Positions 1,362-41,215 of a stretch of 64,000 nt of DNA are shown here, piece by piece. Source of the DNA: an uncultured Acidimicrobiia bacterium (GTDB lineage Bacteria; Actinomycetota; Acidimicrobiia; Acidimicrobiales; Ilumatobacteraceae); NCBI GenBank assembly GCA_963774125.1, contig CAVZDR010000002.1, positions 420,605-484,604 on the forward strand. The letters run 5' to 3'. The notes beneath the pieces were generated by a model. The model had not been told where the DNA came from, ran no database searches, and saw nothing but the letters and a program-made list of their open reading frames with translations. The position numbers and the translations under genes are program-made. Every line of letters begins with the position of its first letter. Positions within the stretch are counted from its first letter, which is position 1.

Positions 1362-2652
1362 GCGTCTCGGCGAGCGCCCGGTTCAGCGTCTCCTGGTGCC
1401 CACCCGCGCCTTCGGCCGCGCTGAACGGCAGCAGCGTGGTCGGCACGTTCAGACGGTCGAGCGTCGACTGGGCGCCGACGGCCAGCGGATCGCGATCGGC
1501 GAACGTGCCGAGGACCGGGCACTGGATGCCGTCACTGACGCCCTCCAACGTGAACGGCGCGATCTTCTGCAACCAGTCGCGCAGGTCGGTCGCGCCGTTG
1601 ACCCACAACCCGCGCTGCACGAAGATCCAGTAGAACCGTTGGTTCGAGTTGACGCCGGCCTCCATCTTGGCGAGGTCCTCGTCGGAGATCTCCGGCAGTT
1701 CCGCGATCGCCTCCGGAGAGAGCCCGAACGCCGCGAACGCGGGCGCGAGCTGTTCGTAGAGCGACCAGGCAGGCGGGTCGGAGACGACGGCGGCGATCCG
1801 CGGCTCGCCCGCCGCGCCACGCAGAGACAGCTGGCCGCCGAGGCTCCAGCCCTGCAGGACAATGCGCGCCGGGTCCACATCGGGTCGGCCGACGAGCGCG
1901 TCGACGACGGGTCCGATCACCCGCTCCCACTCGGCGATCATCGGCACGCCGTCTTGGACCAGGAGCGCGCCCTGGCCTGGGCCGTCGACGAGCACGACGT
2001 GGTAGCCGCGAGGCAGCGCCTGGAGGCCCATGGCGAGGTACATGTCGGACACGCTGGCGTCGTAACCGTTGACCATGACGATGGTCGGGCGCGGTTCGCC
2101 GGGCGCGGCGTCCTTGGCGCGCAGGAAGTAGACCACCAGCCGATTGCCGTCGAGCGTCACGTCCAGCGGCTCCGCCGGCGGTTCGATGAGCGCCATCGGC
2201 GCGGTCGAACGAGGTCGTCTGCGTCTCGAACGCGGTGGCCAGCCGAGGGTCGACCGGTGCGCCGAACAGCAACTTGTAGCTGACGCTGGCGTACACGGCC
2301 GCCCGCAGGTGGTGGTAGAGCGCCGTGTGCGTCTTGCCCTGCGCCTCGGCTTCCTCGGCCTTGGCTCGATGGCGGGTGGCGTGCTCGTACCACGCGTCGT
2401 AGTAGGCGGCGTCGTCCTCGGATGCGACGTCGTTGGCGATGGCCTCGATCTCGCCGACGTCGGCACCCTCTGCCACGTACTCGAAGGCCCACGCCGCGAA
2501 CTGGTTCTGCAGCGGAGTCGCGAAGAGCGTGATGGCCTTCACGTCCTCTTCCGAACCGCCGCCGCCATGACCGCTACGCCCGCGCCGGCGATCAGTTGCC
2601 GCCGCCCGACCGCCCGCGGCGCGGATGCTTCGAAGTCGCCAGCCTCGTCCAT
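1327..2652 (-). pseudogene. alpha/beta hydrolase with probable Tat signal peptide; two frame breaks as sequenced
   Basis: C-terminal two thirds lie in the frame of ORF 1327..2466 (GYHVVLVDGPGQG, QGWSLGG nucleophile elbow). The helical N-domain lies in the frame of ORF 1532..2773 (VKAITLFATPLQNQFAAWAFEYV...), with a break near 2198. Upstream, ATG 2652 with SD GAGGGAG gives MDEAGDFEASAPRAVGRRQLIAGAGVAVMAAA, a twin-arginine signal. It joins the gene only after a shift inside a (GCC)n run near 2560. Confidence 0.6.
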
Positions 2653-2739
2653 TGCTCCCTCGCAACTCGCCGGTCCCCGCCGTCGCCGGCGGGAGGCCAC
2701 CCCGCTGGTCACAGTAGTGCGGTCCCTGCGTCACTCGGG

Positions 2740-3507
2740 TCAGCCGGCGGCCTCCAGCACGACGTAGCGCCATTCCATCCAGCCCTGCCGTTGACGATCG
2801 GGCTCCGGGAGTGAACGCAGCGCGCCGATCGCCGGCACGACCTCGTTGGTCCAGACCTCATCCGACAGGTCCCAACACCACGACCAGGCCCGTGACTCGA
2901 GCAGCTCGGCGGCGTTGGCGGGTGACTGCGCGAACTTGCGTCGAGGCATGTGACCGTCATGGACCAGCACCAGTCCGTCGTCGCGACCGAGGTCGATGAC
3001 CGCCTCGGCAGCCGGACTCGGAATCAGACGGTGCCGAGACGCCACGTCTTGCTGGATCGTCCAGATGTCGTCGTCAGAGTGGTGGTTGCCGTCAATGCCT
3101 GACACCACCAGACGCCCACCGGGCTGCAACAGGTCCGCCGCAGCACGCACGGCGCCGGCGAGGTCGCCGACGAGATGGAGCACGTGCACCGCCACCACCG
3201 CGGCCGCAGCACCCGAGCGGAACGGTGGCGCGAGGACGTCGCCTTGGAGGACCCGTCCGGGCAGGCGCTCGGCAGCCCGGTCGAGCATCGGCCGAGCCAG
3301 GTCCACGCCGACGATCGCGTGGCCTGCGGCGGCAAGGGCGGCGCCGATGAGACCGGTGCCGATACCCAGCTCGACGACCGTGCCTGGCGGCAACCACGGC
3401 GCGAACGCTTCGGCCGTGTGCCGCCCACGAGCATCGCCGCCTCGCGTGGCGTCGTAGCGGTCGGCGATCCGATCGAAGGCGATGGAGGATGACCGCGGCG
3501 GCGTCAC
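2740..3507 (-). CDS. class I SAM-dependent methyltransferase
   Basis: Intact 255-aa ORF with the motif I region VVELGIGTGLIG and FDRIADRYD, typical of Methyltransf_11/25-type enzymes. Confidence 0.8.
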   Translation of the reverse strand: MTPPRSSSIAFDRIADRYDATRGGDARGRHTAEAFAPWLPPGTVVELGIGTGLIGAALAAAGHAIVGVDLARPMLDRAAERLPGRVLQGDVLAPPFRSGAAAAVVAVHVLHLVGDLAGAVRAAADLLQPGGRLVVSGIDGNHHSDDDIWTIQQDVASRHRLIPSPAAEAVIDLGRDDGLVLVHDGHMPRRKFAQSPANAAELLESRAWSWCWDLSDEVWTNEVVPAIGALRSLPEPDRQRQGWMEWRYVVLEAAG

Positions 3508-6185: not shown

Positions 6186-7116
6186 TCAGGACTCGCCGGC
6201 AGCCCGGGCGATGACCAGCCGCACCGCATCGATCACGAGGTCTGGCTCCGTGACCTGGATGTAGTGGATGCTGCCGGTGGCGATCTCGTGCGGCGTGTTC
6301 GGCACCAGATCGACGAGCGTCTGCTGTGCTTCGGGCCAAATGGCATCGACGTCGGCGTTGGTCATGCCCGAGCCGGCGGGGAAGTCGGGGAACGGTTCGG
6401 TCTTGCTCATCACGACGAGCGGAAATTCGGCATCGAGTGGCGGCGCGCTCACGACCTCGTCGATGCTGGCGTCGATGTCGAACTTCTCGTACTCCGGCTG
6501 AGCGTTCAGCGATTCGCCGGGCGGGTTGTTCAGCACCTCGACGTAGGCCTGCCACTTCTCGCCCAACAGCTCACGGACGGCGGGCGCGAACGCGTCGACG
6601 AGGACCAGCCCGACGACGTCGTCCGGGTGGGACCGGGCGTACAACTGGGCGATCATGCCGCCCCACGAGTGGGCGACGAGCACGTAAGGCCCGGGAACTT
6701 CGGCGACGGTCAGCAGCGTGTTCAAGTCGGCGACGGAGTCAGCGACCGTGCGCGGCATCTCTACGGGAGTCGACCGGTCGGTGATCGCCGGCGGGTCGCC
6801 GGGAACGACCGTGCCCGGTCGGTCGTAGCGACAGACCGCGGTTCGTCTCCGCCAGACCCTGCATGACCGGCGGATCGACGGCGGGAGGCAGCAGCTGTGA
6901 CACCGTCCAGTACTCGCTCGAGTCGTGGATGCCGGACTCGAGGATGACGGTCGGCTCGCCGTCCCCCATGCACTCGAGGAACATCGTCCGCCCGTCGCCG
7001 ATGTCGACGGACGGTGATGAATTCCCGTCGTCCCCCCCGCAGGCGGCAAGGACGGCGAATGCCGTGACGATCGGAATGCACCGTACGGCCGAGGTGTTGC
7101 GCGACCTGTGAGTCAC
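6186..7116 (-). pseudogene. alpha/beta hydrolase lipoprotein; one frame break as sequenced
   Basis: N-terminus in the frame of ORF 6739..7725: VTHRSRNTSAVRCIPIVTAFAVLAACGG (lipobox LAAC), then TMFLECMGDGEPTVILESG. The rest is in the frame of ORF 6186..7049 (LVAHSWGG nucleophile elbow). The break is near 6838. The GTG 7116 start is tentative. Confidence 0.65.
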
Positions 7117-7999
7117 ACGACAAGCGAGTCCTTCACGTTCACCAGCGGCGGTGACCGACTGGTCGGCACCCTGTACCTCCCGGCAGGCCAGCCCGTGGCG
7201 GCTGTGGTGACCACTGGCCCGCTGACGTCGGTGAAGGAGCAAGCGACCGGAGCGTACGCGCGGGCACTCGCCGAGCGAGGCTTCGCCGCCCTGGCCTTCG
7301 ACCATCGAACGTTCGGCGAGAGCGAGGGTGAACCGCGCCAACTCGAAGACCCCGTCGGTAAGGCCGTCGACGTGCGGGCCGCCGTGACCGCGTTGGCCGC
7401 CGACGAGCGGACCGGCGATCTTCCGGTCGTCGCCGTCGGCGTCTGCGCCGGAGCCGGGTACATGGCGAGGGCCGTCGCCGATGACCAACGTCTCCGAGCG
7501 TTCGCCGGCGTTGCCGGGTACTACTCGGACGCCACCGAGTTCGCCAACTCGTCGCCGGAGCACTACCAGGCGGCGATCGACCGTGGACTCGCCGCGGAGC
7601 AGCGCTGGCGAGACACGGGCGAGGCGGAGACCATCCCGGCGGTCGCCGCCGACGGTGGCGACGTGGCGATGCCGCTGCAAGAGGCGTACGAGTTCTACGG
7701 CACTCGAGCGCGGAGCGGTCGACAACTACACCAACGGCTTCGCCGTCCAGTCACTCGCTCACACGACGCCTTTCGACGCCCAGGAGTCGGCAAGCCGGAT
7801 CACGGTGCCGTTCCTGCTCGTGCATTCCGAGCACACGCTCGCTCCCCCGCTCGCGCGCAGGTTCTACGGCGTGGTCAGTGCACCGAAGACCGAGCGGTGG
7901 CTGGAATCGCAGGGGCAGATCGACTTCTACGACGACCCACGCCTCATCGACCCGGCCGCCGACACGATCGTCGAGCACTTCACCGCCGCGCTGAACTGA
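7108..7999 (+). pseudogene. alpha/beta hydrolase (dienelactone-hydrolase-like); one frame break as sequenced
   Basis: ORF 7108..8025 gives MSHTTSESFTFTSGGDRLVGTLYLPAG...GVCAGAGY up to AYEFYGT. The sense continues in ORF 7481..7999 (ERGAVDNYTNGFAVQSL...VPFLLVHSEHT...). The break is near 7705. Confidence 0.65.
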
Positions 8000-36053: not shown

Positions 36054-37730
<1,677 letters not shown>

Positions 37731-37927
37731 CCGGTCGCGAAGGGCGGCGCCGGCCGGCGTGCGAGCGCCAGCGAGCCGCCGGCAGATGGGGTCTGGGGGC
37801 GCAGCCCCCAGCAGAACACGGCGCCGCCGCCGACCAGCCCCACCGGATCAAGTACAAGAAGCTGGCGTCATGACCGTTCGCGAAGGGCGGGTGCCAGAAA
37901 ACGTCGACCGATAGCGTCCGGCACCGC

Positions 37928-38781: not shown

Positions 38782-40698
38782 GTGGCTCGTCGCATCAGCG
38801 CTTTCGCCGTCGCGGGACTGGCTTCGATCGGCGCCGGCGTGGTGCACGCCACGGCGGCCGGCATGCACGCCGAGCACGAGCTGCTGACCCGGCTCTTCGT
38901 CGCCACCGCGGCAGCCCAGGTGCTCATCGGCGCGCTCGTGCTGCTGCGCGCCGGTCGGCTGACCGCCATCGGGACCGCCCTCATCAACGGGGCTGCCGTT
39001 GTCGCCTGGGCCATCACCCGCGTCGCTGACATCTCGTGGATCGGAGGTCTCGAGCAGGCCGAGGCGCCGCAGTTCGCGGACACCGCCTCCGCGGCACTCG
39101 GAGTGCTCGCCACCGTCGCTGCCGTCGTCGCCCTGCGGCCGGCAGAGCGGACCGTCAAGAACGGCACCGGCATCATCGCGCCTGCCGTTGCCGTCGCCGC
39201 AGTGACGGTCGCCGCGATGCTCGCGACGGCGAGTCACGTCCACTCCCACGGTGAGTCCGAAGCCGGTCACGAGCACACCGGCGAGGAAGCCGCCGGCGCA
39301 CACGATCACGCAACAGAGGCGGCGACCGAGACAACGGCCCACTCCCATGGCGACGAGGTCGCCACGGCGGATCACGAGCACACCGACGATGCGACCGCGG
39401 CCGCGCATGAGCACACCGACGACGCCACCACAGCGCAGGCGGTTGCCGCCGCGGCGTGGCCGCGACCATGGGACCCGACGCAACCAATCGACTTCTCGGG
39501 TGTGCCCGGCGTGACGCCCGAGCAGCAAGCCCGCGCCGAGGCCCTCGTCAAGACGACGCTCGAGCAGCTCCCGCAGTTCGCCGACGTCTCGACGCTCCCG
39601 GCGCTCGGCTACCGGTCGATCGGCGACGCGTCCACCGGGCACGAGCACTACATCAACATGGGCTACATCGTGGACGACGCGTTCCTCGACCCGTCGAAGC
39701 CCGAGTCCCTCGTGTACGCCGTCGACGGTGACCAGCGCACGCTCGTGTCAGCGATGTTCATCGCCAACGACCGTCCGATCGATGATCCGGAGCTCGTTGA
39801 TTTCGGCGGCGGCCTGATGCAATGGCACGTCCACGAGAACCTGTGCTGGGGTCTGAACGACGCCGGCGAACCGGTCGTCGTCGGGCTGACCGACGCCGAC
39901 GGCAACTGCGCCCCGCCGTCCGTCCACGCCGGCGGCAACAACCCGATGGTCCACGTGTGGATCGCGCCACACGAGTGCGGGCCGTTCGCCGCGCTGGAGG
40001 GACACGGGGCCGGGCAGACCGGAGATGACGGCCCGCGTGTCGATCAGTGCGCGCACGAGGGCCACGGTGATCACGCCGCGGCGGGTGCCGTCGTGGCGCC
40101 GGTGCCCTACGACCCGACGAAGCCGATCGATCTCTCGGGCGTCGAGGGCGTCACACCGGAACAACAGGCCTACGCCGAGAACCTGGTTGCCGTGACCGTG
40201 ATCCGGTTGCCGCAGTGGTCGGACCCAGCCGTTGCCGAAGCGGCCGGATTCCACTCGATCGGTGACGCCGCGACCGGACACGAGCACTACGTGCAGTGGG
40301 ACTGGATCAATGACGACGTCTGGCTGGATCCCGATGCCCCCGAGAGTCTCGTGTACGAGCCGCAGCCGGACGGGTCGAAGAAGCTGGTGTCGGCGATGTA
40401 CATGCTTCCGACCTCGGTGGCGTTGGAGGACGTGCCGGAATACGGCGGCGCGCTGATGCAGTGGCACATCCACGACAACCTCTGCTACACGAACGACCCG
40501 GTCGCCCCCCAGGTCGCCGGCCTGACCCGCGGGGATGGATCATGCCGACCGCCGCTCGTCAAGCACGACGAGGCGGCGATGATCCACGTCTGGATCACGC
40601 CCCACCAGTGCGGCCCGTTCGCCGCTTTGGAGGGCGTCGGTGCCGGCACGGTGCCGGCCGGTGAGGAGCAGTGGTGCGATCACGCTCACGGTTCCTAG
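38782..40698 (+). CDS. uncharacterised polytopic membrane protein with His-rich spacers and two tandem His/Cys-rich domains
   Basis: GTG start, 638 aa. About 4 hydrophobic helices span aa 1-150. The spacer at aa 151-212 has many H-x-H units. Repeats at aa 226-411 and 441-621 share PIDxSGVxGVTPEQQA, SIGDAxTGHEHY, PESLVY, LVSAM, LMQWHxHxNLC, CxPP and HVWIxPHxCGPFAALEG. I recognise no named family. Confidence 0.7.
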   Translation: MARRISAFAVAGLASIGAGVVHATAAGMHAEHELLTRLFVATAAAQVLIGALVLLRAGRLTAIGTALINGAAVVAWAITRVADISWIGGLEQAEAPQFADTASAALGVLATVAAVVALRPAERTVKNGTGIIAPAVAVAAVTVAAMLATASHVHSHGESEAGHEHTGEEAAGAHDHATEAATETTAHSHGDEVATADHEHTDDATAAAHEHTDDATTAQAVAAAAWPRPWDPTQPIDFSGVPGVTPEQQARAEALVKTTLEQLPQFADVSTLPALGYRSIGDASTGHEHYINMGYIVDDAFLDPSKPESLVYAVDGDQRTLVSAMFIANDRPIDDPELVDFGGGLMQWHVHENLCWGLNDAGEPVVVGLTDADGNCAPPSVHAGGNNPMVHVWIAPHECGPFAALEGHGAGQTGDDGPRVDQCAHEGHGDHAAAGAVVAPVPYDPTKPIDLSGVEGVTPEQQAYAENLVAVTVIRLPQWSDPAVAEAAGFHSIGDAATGHEHYVQWDWINDDVWLDPDAPESLVYEPQPDGSKKLVSAMYMLPTSVALEDVPEYGGALMQWHIHDNLCYTNDPVAPQVAGLTRGDGSCRPPLVKHDEAAMIHVWITPHQCGPFAALEGVGAGTVPAGEEQWCDHAHGS

Positions 40699-40708
40699 GC
40701 GGCGCTGT

Positions 40709-41215
40709 GTGCTGATCGCCATCGTCGCGACCGTCGTGGGAGGCATCGCCGCCTGCGCGCTGGTCTGCGGACTGATGGCCAGAGCTCGTCCCCAGCGCCA
40801 GCAGCGCGCGCCCGAACCGACGACTCCGGACGACGCGGTGCTCGAGCAGCTGATCGATCCTGGCGACGTCGCCGAACTCGAGGCGCGCTGGCACGCGCTC
40901 GACGCCGATCATCGGCGGCTCAACGAGGTCCTCGTGGCCCGCCTGCGCCCGCTCGTCGATCGTCGCGTCCCGGTCCGCGTCGTCGAGCCGGTCCCGGCCC
41001 GCCAGGTCGTGCGCATCCGGTTCGCCGACGGGACGACGGTGGTCGGGCGCGGAGAGGTCGCCGGCGATGCAGGCGTTCTGGCGTCGTTGGCGCGCCAGCA
41101 ATCGGTTTGGCCAGGCTCGCTGACGACCGACGCCTCCGGCGCCCACGTCGTGTTCTCCTGGTCGGGCGGGCGCTGCGTCACGGTACTCGTGACCGGCCTC
41201 GATCAGCCTGACTGA
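40709..41215 (+). CDS. hypothetical single-pass membrane protein
   Basis: Probable GTG 40709, 10 nt after the preceding stop. An N-terminal hydrophobic helix LIAIVATVVGGIAACALVCGL is followed by a soluble ~140-aa domain. No motif recognised. Confidence 0.45.
   Translation: MLIAIVATVVGGIAACALVCGLMARARPQRQQRAPEPTTPDDAVLEQLIDPGDVAELEARWHALDADHRRLNEVLVARLRPLVDRRVPVRVVEPVPARQVVRIRFADGTTVVGRGEVAGDAGVLASLARQQSVWPGSLTTDASGAHVVFSWSGGRCVTVLVTGLDQPD

Follow-up and report, generated by a model that had tools for sequence, protein, structure and literature searches.

An unnamed His- and Cys-rich domain, duplicated in a membrane protein of the Acidimicrobiia, with a possible role in metal binding outside the cytoplasm

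Architecture of the gene and its product

The window analysed here is a stretch of 64,000 nucleotides (nt) from an uncultured Acidimicrobiia bacterium of the Ilumatobacteraceae (assembly GCA_963774125.1, contig CAVZDR010000002.1, positions 420,605 to 484,604), with a G+C content of ~70% across its whole length. The subject of the analysis is a GTG-start open reading frame (ORF) at window positions 38782–40698 on the forward strand, encoding a protein of 638 aa whose parts were delimited using full-length homologues and an AlphaFold model. An N-terminal transmembrane (TM) module of five helices (aa 1–150; 38782–39231), recognized by hydropathy, DSSP helices, conservation and the positive-inside rule, is followed by a disordered linker rich in His, Asp and Glu and built of H-x-H units (aa 151–225; 39232–39456), recognized by its pLDDT and by the composition of linkers across the family. 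Within the linker, the 'HEHTDDAT' units correspond to a 33-nt tandem repeat in the DNA (39351–39431; 2.5 copies; Tandem Repeats Finder, 77% matches, score 90). The remainder of the protein consists of two copies of one domain: Repeat 1 (R1; aa 226–411), which together with its tail 'RVDQCAHEGHGDH' spans 39457–40077 and is defined by BLASTP, alignment and a pLDDT of ~90, and Repeat 2 (R2; aa 439–625), which together with the C-terminal tail 'EEQWCDHAHGS' spans 40096–40695 and is defined by conservation and a stand-alone AlphaFold model.

The two copies align over 186 positions (aa 226–411 against aa 439–624, an offset of 213 aa) with 55% identity and 69% positives (BLASTP E=1e-66), far above chance; each copy is ~187 aa long. 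The protein contains 37 His (5.8%) and eight Cys, the latter divided as four per repeat. The full-length AlphaFold model has a mean pLDDT of 79, rising to ~90 in both repeats and in the TM module. Scans of the gene locus for promoters, terminators and Rfam families returned no matches. The description offered by an earlier sequence-only reading, a membrane protein with a His-rich spacer and tandem repeats, is thus borne out by the ORF, the BLASTP alignment and the model.

Topology, membrane module and linker

Both hydropathy and the DSSP assignment of the AlphaFold model place five TM helices at aa 7–28, 33–55, 59–81, 98–117 and 132–150, where the sequence-only reading had counted about four. 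Across 20 diverse TM domains of the family, Lys and Arg residues average 1.05 at the N-terminus, 0.95 in the loop between helices 2 and 3 and 3.3 in the loop between helices 4 and 5, against 0.05, 0.3 and 0.25 in the outer loops, and the remaining loops and the linker are acidic. Because the number of helices is odd and the positive charge lies at the N-terminus and in loops 2–3 and 4–5, the N-terminus is inside and the C-terminus, with both repeats, is outside. The existence of variants of the domain that are anchored as lipoproteins, and the four conserved Cys in each domain, fit the same extracytoplasmic location, which had been proposed from the sequence and now has this additional backing.

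The conserved residues of the TM module are H22, G27, H29, Q46, N69, W76, R80, G89-L90, E94 and D100, the first three of which lie in the motif GAGxxHxxxxGxH of TM1. The module appears to be more than an inert anchor, because polar residues are conserved both in the middle of the membrane and on the outer face. A profile search of PDB sequences with the TM module gave no relative.

H-x-H units interspersed with Asp, Glu and Thr make up the linker, which has a pLDDT of 29–46; the H-x-H spacer reported earlier occupies aa 152–211 and is disordered in the AlphaFold model. Its first element, a T/S-H-x-H-S-H cluster, stands directly at the outer end of TM5, and close homologues almost always retain H154 and H163. 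Linkers across the family have a median length of 72 aa and contain 14% His and 20% Asp plus Glu, with practically no Met or Cys, and at least one HxH is present in 116 of 125; it is the composition that is conserved family-wide and not the sequence.

A conserved core without a known relative

Conservation within the repeat was scored over 94 diverse domains with identities down to ~37% (R2 numbering). The positions conserved in 96–100% of these domains are E501-H502, D511, D516, P520-E521, H562, H564, C568, C588, H602-V-W604 and C610-G-x-F613, with M539 (98%) and M600 (95%) close to the same level, and a fourth Cys in the tail, C632 in R2 and C423 in R1, is likewise conserved. Written as motifs, the core reads E-H, D, D, P-E, W-H-x-H, M-x-H-V-W and C-G-P-F, together with four Cys. 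Both repeats of the window protein retain the full set: the R1 equivalents are E288-H289, H349-x-H351, C355, C376, H391, C399 and C423. The codons of H502, H562-x-H564 and H602 in R2 lie at 40285–40287, 40465–40473 and 40585–40587, and that of H391 in R1 at 39952–39954. Conservation extends well beyond this core, as columns average 46% identity in a set of domains filtered to <55% pairwise identity and many Gly, Pro and Trp are invariant, whereas the C-terminal tail C-D-H-x-H-G is conserved moderately (Asp in 80%, the last His in 64%).

The strict motif list drawn up in the sequence-only reading holds in part. Its His/Cys core is invariant among the homologues, so that a loss of these positions, which would have told against that reading, was not observed; several other listed positions vary, and the core is correspondingly smaller. 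The first His of TGHEHY (H287/H500) is usually Phe, Tyr or another residue, the His of PHxCGPF is His in 64% and Asn in 29% of domains, and the prolines of CxPP are variable.

No family in Pfam-A or NCBIfam matched the 638-aa protein at E<=1, and none was shared by 60 diverse relatives, in which the sole matches were to fused or chimeric parts of single members (kinase, methyltransferase/SDR) and weak chance matches. Three profiles searched against PDB sequences gave no match. When modelled alone by AlphaFold, R2 forms an alpha+beta domain (pLDDT 86, pTM 0.84) in which one long helix at the N-terminus and one short helix accompany seven short strands. Foldseek found no neighbour of this model among 350,542 PDB chains (best E=0.08, TM-scores 0.10–0.17) or in BFVD (best E=0.16), with all TM-scores over the two collections <=0.19, and the full-length model retrieved generic helix bundles only (E ~1). 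No description of the family was found in literature searches. The repeat therefore represents a large and well-defined family that is unnamed in the Pfam-A and NCBIfam copies searched and lacks a PDB counterpart. The earlier statement that it could not be assigned to a named family withstands the profile and structure searches of a single repeat, none of which produced a confident match.

Several families were considered as relatives and rejected by comparison. For the LAS metallopeptidases (M23/M15/M74), an H-x-H is present (H562/H564) but the spacing of His to Asp is 8 (H502...D511) and not that of H-x(3-6)-D; lysostaphin appeared in Foldseek at E 1.2–1.5 with a TM-score of ~0.1, and hhalign against an M23 peptidase gave a probability of 0.2%. 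G556-x5-H562-x-H564 fits the first half of cupin motif 1, but neither the Glu nor motif 2 is present, and two N-terminal helices with seven short strands do not form a jelly-roll barrel; no cupin was among the Foldseek matches listed. CopC/CopD (PF04234/PF05425) and Caa3_CtaG (PF09678) had no Pfam match, and the TM profile aligned to a CopC-CopD protein and to the CtaG protein of locus L086 (described below) with an hhalign probability of 0.13% in each case. A YcnI-like protein and DUF305 were likewise set aside on motif, fold or hhalign comparison, and thioredoxin-like or Dsb proteins on the missing CxxC (the Cys of R2 are 568, 588, 610 and 632) and the failure to find a thioredoxin fold.

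Distribution and domain architectures

The protein has >2,018 matches in a collection of 5.8 billion proteins. The best 120 of these are full-length (55–96% identity, ~600–730 aa), carry two repeats in 120/120 cases and are all annotated as 'hypothetical', without Pfam domains; where the source is named it is Ilumatobacteraceae or Acidimicrobiia, including the cultured Desertimonas flava. The repeat profile retrieved 1,938 clusters at E<=1e-3, and 303 at E<=1e-30, from 1.84 billion representatives at 50% identity, and a scan of GTDB with one genome per species confirmed at least 531 loci, the best 80 of which belong to Acidimicrobiia metagenome-assembled genomes (MAGs) and Desertimonas flava. 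A search seeded with the most divergent members returned Acidimicrobiales proteins and one from Nocardia caishijiensis, leaving the named members of the family as nearly all Acidimicrobiia with one Nocardia. The Acidimicrobiia MAGs derive from soil, freshwater and other environmental metagenomes. A close relative of the source, locus L002 (MAG MFD02840.bin.3.693), is 94–99% identical to the window over the target gene and the compared neighbours (91% for the EttA-like gene) and has the same gene order. Three loci (L012, L017 and L030) come from records titled 'uncultured Bifidobacterium sp.' yet carry a gene of the Ilumatobacteraceae type; the labels are probably wrong. The order EttA, inositol phosphatase, target, ABC1 is full in 2/3 of them, and L017 holds only the inositol-phosphatase gene.

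Three architectures recur within the family: the R1–R2 tandem behind the five-helix module, a single domain behind the same module and His linker (~400 aa), and lipoproteins of ~250 aa with a signal peptide and a LAAC-type lipobox ahead of the domain, of which at least 14 were recognized (for example P0303). The five-helix module is fused to the ectodomain in the great majority of members. The repeat is an autonomous domain, because it also occurs singly and on lipoprotein anchors. Single-domain proteins of both the R1 type and the R2 type exist, with Nocardia caishijiensis providing an example of the former.

Some members depart from these patterns. P0126, P0128 and P0272 (metagenomic or from an Acidimicrobiia MAG) form a separate two-domain lineage in which both copies are R2-like, which suggests an independent duplication; the linker of P0126 is a long Pro/His-rich repeat with 'HPPSDPT' units. 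Two members of 281 aa, both of the lipoprotein type (P0303 and its neighbour), stand in tandem at 1691–2536 and 2574–3419 of locus L088, and L087 and L127 have two family genes each. In P0183 (406 aa, a metagenomic representative) a Ser/Thr kinase catalytic domain is fused directly to the ectodomain without an intervening TM segment, and this fusion was treated as a probable assembly chimera.

Genomic context

In the window, the gene lies in the order EttA-like ABC-F gene, inositol-phosphatase-family gene, target, a small gene, ABC1/UbiB kinase gene, GalT gene (reverse strand) and NucS gene. Most Ilumatobacteraceae loci retain the order, apart from variable insertions, and the block represents vertical synteny of housekeeping genes and not an operon. 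When flanking ORFs were clustered all-against-all for 80 GTDB loci and for 81 single-domain loci, no neighbour family occurred in more than 7 loci of either set.

A small number of loci have a more informative setting. In L086 a single-domain member (P0274) sits between genes for a NirK-like multicopper oxidase and a cupredoxin on one side and a CopC-CopD fusion on the other, in what is a copper or heavy-metal island: ahead of the target are ArsR, P-type ATPase, DsbA, VKOR, CDF, a further ArsR, the multicopper oxidase and the cupredoxin, and after it CopC-CopD, a YcnI-like protein, a Sco-like lipoprotein, DUF305, BacA, Caa3_CtaG, a BlaI/CopY-like repressor and a second cupredoxin. A CopC-CopD gene also adjoins, in another orientation, the two closest metagenomic relatives of P0274 (L094 and L095). 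A cupredoxin-multicopper-oxidase fusion lies two genes downstream of a two-domain copy (L033), bacterioferritin is encoded directly upstream in L121, L129 and L135, a ferritin is encoded downstream of the family gene in L090, and L093 contains an ArsR-AHSA1-target operon. The few neighbourhoods that are informative indicate copper most often, and as evidence for metals, and especially for copper, gene context is no more than suggestive.

Two further features of these loci may be recorded. Near the family member and CopC-CopD gene of L094, a reverse-strand ORF at 6846–7643 encodes what was assigned by eye as a C-terminal fragment resembling cytochrome oxidase subunit I, and its product ends in a His/Asp/Gly-rich tail 'DGGHGHHDGDHGHGPDGG'. 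At L084 (8193–9698), the Nocardia caishijiensis copy is divergently adjacent to a Pkinase gene.

Interpretation and alternatives

The favoured interpretation, held tentatively and with a probability somewhat short of even, is that the protein would be a module tethered to the membrane that binds metal outside the cytoplasm, most plausibly ions of the Cu(II)/Zn(II) type. Metal binding by the domain, also suggested in the sequence-only reading, is plausible from the chemistry of its residues, from the His/Asp/Glu-rich linker and from the few metal-gene neighbourhoods. The five-helix module would anchor the protein in the cytoplasmic membrane and hold the two paralogous alpha+beta domains of ~190 aa at the outer face. 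The four invariant His of each domain (H502, H562, H564 and H602 in R2; H289, H349, H351 and H391 in R1), with invariant carboxylates nearby, may form one putative mononuclear metal site per domain, and the four Cys of each repeat would pair into two structural disulfides. The linker and the C-D-H-x-H-G tail could then act as low-affinity arms on which divalent ions gather before transfer to the folded sites or to a conserved polar face of the TM module; this face, made up of H29, R80, E94 and D100 with the H-x-H-S-H cluster where TM5 ends, may take or deliver an ion. Since the linker offers His, Asp and Glu without Met or Cys, the borderline ions Cu(II), Zn(II) and Ni(II) would be favoured. 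Such a protein might capture or buffer a transition metal at the cell surface, or hand it on there.

A number of observations weigh against this interpretation. The window copy belongs to a housekeeping block passed on by vertical descent, and the majority of neighbourhoods have no link to metals; the contexts with a Ser/Thr kinase (Nocardia), an acyltransferase, luciferase-like monooxygenases, P450s and a penicillin-binding protein (PBP), among others, show nothing related to metals. The CopC-CopD and bacterioferritin links are each found in one lineage of three related loci, and because each is confined in this way they amount to roughly one evolutionary event apiece. Some lipoprotein forms lack any His-rich linker, and the many invariant acidic residues and very high conservation would fit a catalytic site equally well.

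The last two points lead to the principal alternative, an extracytoplasmic metalloenzyme (a hydrolase or oxidoreductase) acting on a substrate in the envelope or outside the cell, in which the His tetrad with Glu/Asp would be a catalytic metal centre and the linker would only help to load metal outside. This alternative is unlikely on balance and still has appreciable weight. Besides the His, four acidic residues are invariant or nearly so; the order H...D...HxH is loosely like that of LAS-type zinc peptidases; a PBP transpeptidase gene precedes one lipoprotein copy, on the same strand and at a distance of 31 nt; and genes for an M23 peptidase and BacA are found near some copies. Yet the adjacency to the PBP gene was seen once and is not repeated at two other lipoprotein loci, no conserved partner or substrate-related gene emerged from the ~160 loci, and the domain has no fold or profile likeness to any enzyme family, the peptidase comparisons described above included.

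The five-helix module could itself be a metal permease, alone or as an oligomer, with the ectodomains and linker serving as a substrate-gathering antenna; the whole protein would then be a self-contained importer with a logic analogous to that of CopC-CopD (YcnJ). The polar residues conserved within or at the outer end of the helices (H22, H29, Q46, N69, R80, E94 and D100), the placing of the H-x-H-S-H cluster exactly at the exit of TM5 and the fusion of the module to the ectodomain in most members are all in keeping with transport. HupE/UreJ Ni/Co permeases have six helices and a signature, HPxxGxDH, in TM1, and the spacing of H22-x4-G27-x-H29 is similar to it, in a different sequence; Pfam HupE_UreJ gave no match to the 638-aa protein at E<=1. 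A permease is improbable, as five helices are small for a transporter, the module shows no relationship in sequence with CopD, with CtaG or with any membrane protein of the PDB and belongs to no Pfam transporter family, and lipoprotein-anchored members have the ectodomain but not the module. A redox function had been raised in the sequence-only reading; a thiol-disulfide or other envelope redox protein, with active Cys and a purely structural role for the His, is very improbable. The four Cys per repeat are nearly invariant and the L086 island includes genes for DsbA and VKOR, but the repeat contains no CxxC or CxC, the R2 Cys are spaced by 20, 22 and 22 residues in a manner usual for two structural disulfides of an exported protein, no thioredoxin-like fold was found by AlphaFold or Foldseek, and the His are as invariant as the Cys.

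Relation to known systems

An outward-facing metal-binding module of this kind would likely represent a known kind of function, extracytoplasmic metal handling, placed here on a putatively undescribed scaffold. The CopC-CopD fusions (YcnJ type; E. coli YobA-YebZ, PMC8689200) likewise combine an extracytoplasmic metal-binding domain with a polytopic membrane module containing conserved His, and it is a gene of this type that adjoins family members in L086, L094 and L095. The two are not homologous: the module here has five helices where that of CopD is larger, and the ectodomain is alpha+beta, ~190 aa long, with a His tetrad, arranged in tandem and placed after a long His-rich linker, whereas CopC is a beta-barrel. 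ZnuA and ZinT are periplasmic zinc-capture proteins with His-rich flexible segments. In the zinc-capture proteins Zcp/DUF4198 (PMC12663993), too, an extracytoplasmic folded domain with a His site is accompanied by disordered His/Asp/Glu-rich stretches proposed to gather metal. No sequence or fold relation to the zinc-capture proteins was detected, and the protein described here differs from them in being integral to the membrane and duplicated, with no associated ABC transporter in the window.

PacL1 (Rv3269) acts on the cytoplasmic side of the membrane. It is described in a preprint (bioRxiv 10.1101/2021.10.01.462712) as an actinobacterial membrane-anchored metallochaperone-like protein with a C-terminal metal-binding motif that works with the P-ATPase metal exporter CtpC. 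The resemblance lies in an actinobacterial, membrane-tethered protein with a short terminal metal-binding motif, for which C-D-H-x-H-G would be the putative counterpart here; the domain of the present family, in contrast, faces outward, is large and folded, contains His and Cys that do not vary, and lacks a conserved ATPase partner. The LAS-type zinc peptidases (M23 lysostaphin/LytM, M15 VanX/VanY) share with the repeat an ordered His, Asp and H-x-H on an alpha+beta scaffold, an extracytoplasmic location and occasional cell-wall gene neighbours, and are distinguished from it by the H-x3-6-D that is H-x8-D here and by the fourth invariant His of the repeat.

The Acidimicrobiia (Ilumatobacteraceae and relatives) are largely uncultured, with few isolates and much of their envelope biology unannotated. 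The fixed and vertically inherited chromosomal position of the gene in the Ilumatobacteraceae suggests a core function for the family in this group. In its strongest form, the proposal would be that the repeat is a new fold with a new four-His metal centre which, together with an undescribed five-helix module, makes up a class-specific device for metal acquisition or hand-off and a core component of the Acidimicrobiia surface; so much taken together is doubtful. Should the His tetrad prove to be a metal site, the repeat would add a new scaffold to the extracytoplasmic metal-handling proteins and provide a handle on how Acidimicrobiia obtain or resist copper and zinc. The family stands as a well-characterized domain of unknown function, which is useful and not by itself surprising, and its cultured carriers Desertimonas flava and Nocardia caishijiensis make it experimentally approachable.

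The small downstream gene and other local features

The small gene that follows the target (40709–41215, forward strand) encodes 169 aa with one N-terminal TM segment, as had been noted from the sequence, and its GTG start at 40709, 11 nt past the target stop codon, is plausible. No Pfam family matched its product. An iterative hidden Markov model search found homologues in 6/68 two-domain GTDB loci with enough downstream sequence, always directly downstream of the family gene, and none was detected in L037, whose repeats are ~91–94% identical to those of the window. The pair is thus specific to a clade, and the two-gene unit proposed in the sequence-only reading does not hold for the family. 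In L001 (10107–10596; on the same contig as L062 8667–9117) the homologue is divided between two reading frames, one with the N-terminal TM part and another with the C-terminal 78 aa, by a frameshift or a sequencing error.

Further upstream in the window, a 72-nt direct repeat at 37676–37747 and 37819–37890 (99% identical, 143 nt from start to start) duplicates the end of the EttA-like coding region, from the final codons through the stop codon to ~18 nt beyond, in the interval ahead of the inositol-phosphatase-family gene. Either a small tandem duplication or an assembly artefact could account for it. In L002, only ~14 nt separate the EttA-like and inositol-phosphatase-family genes, as located by tblastn.

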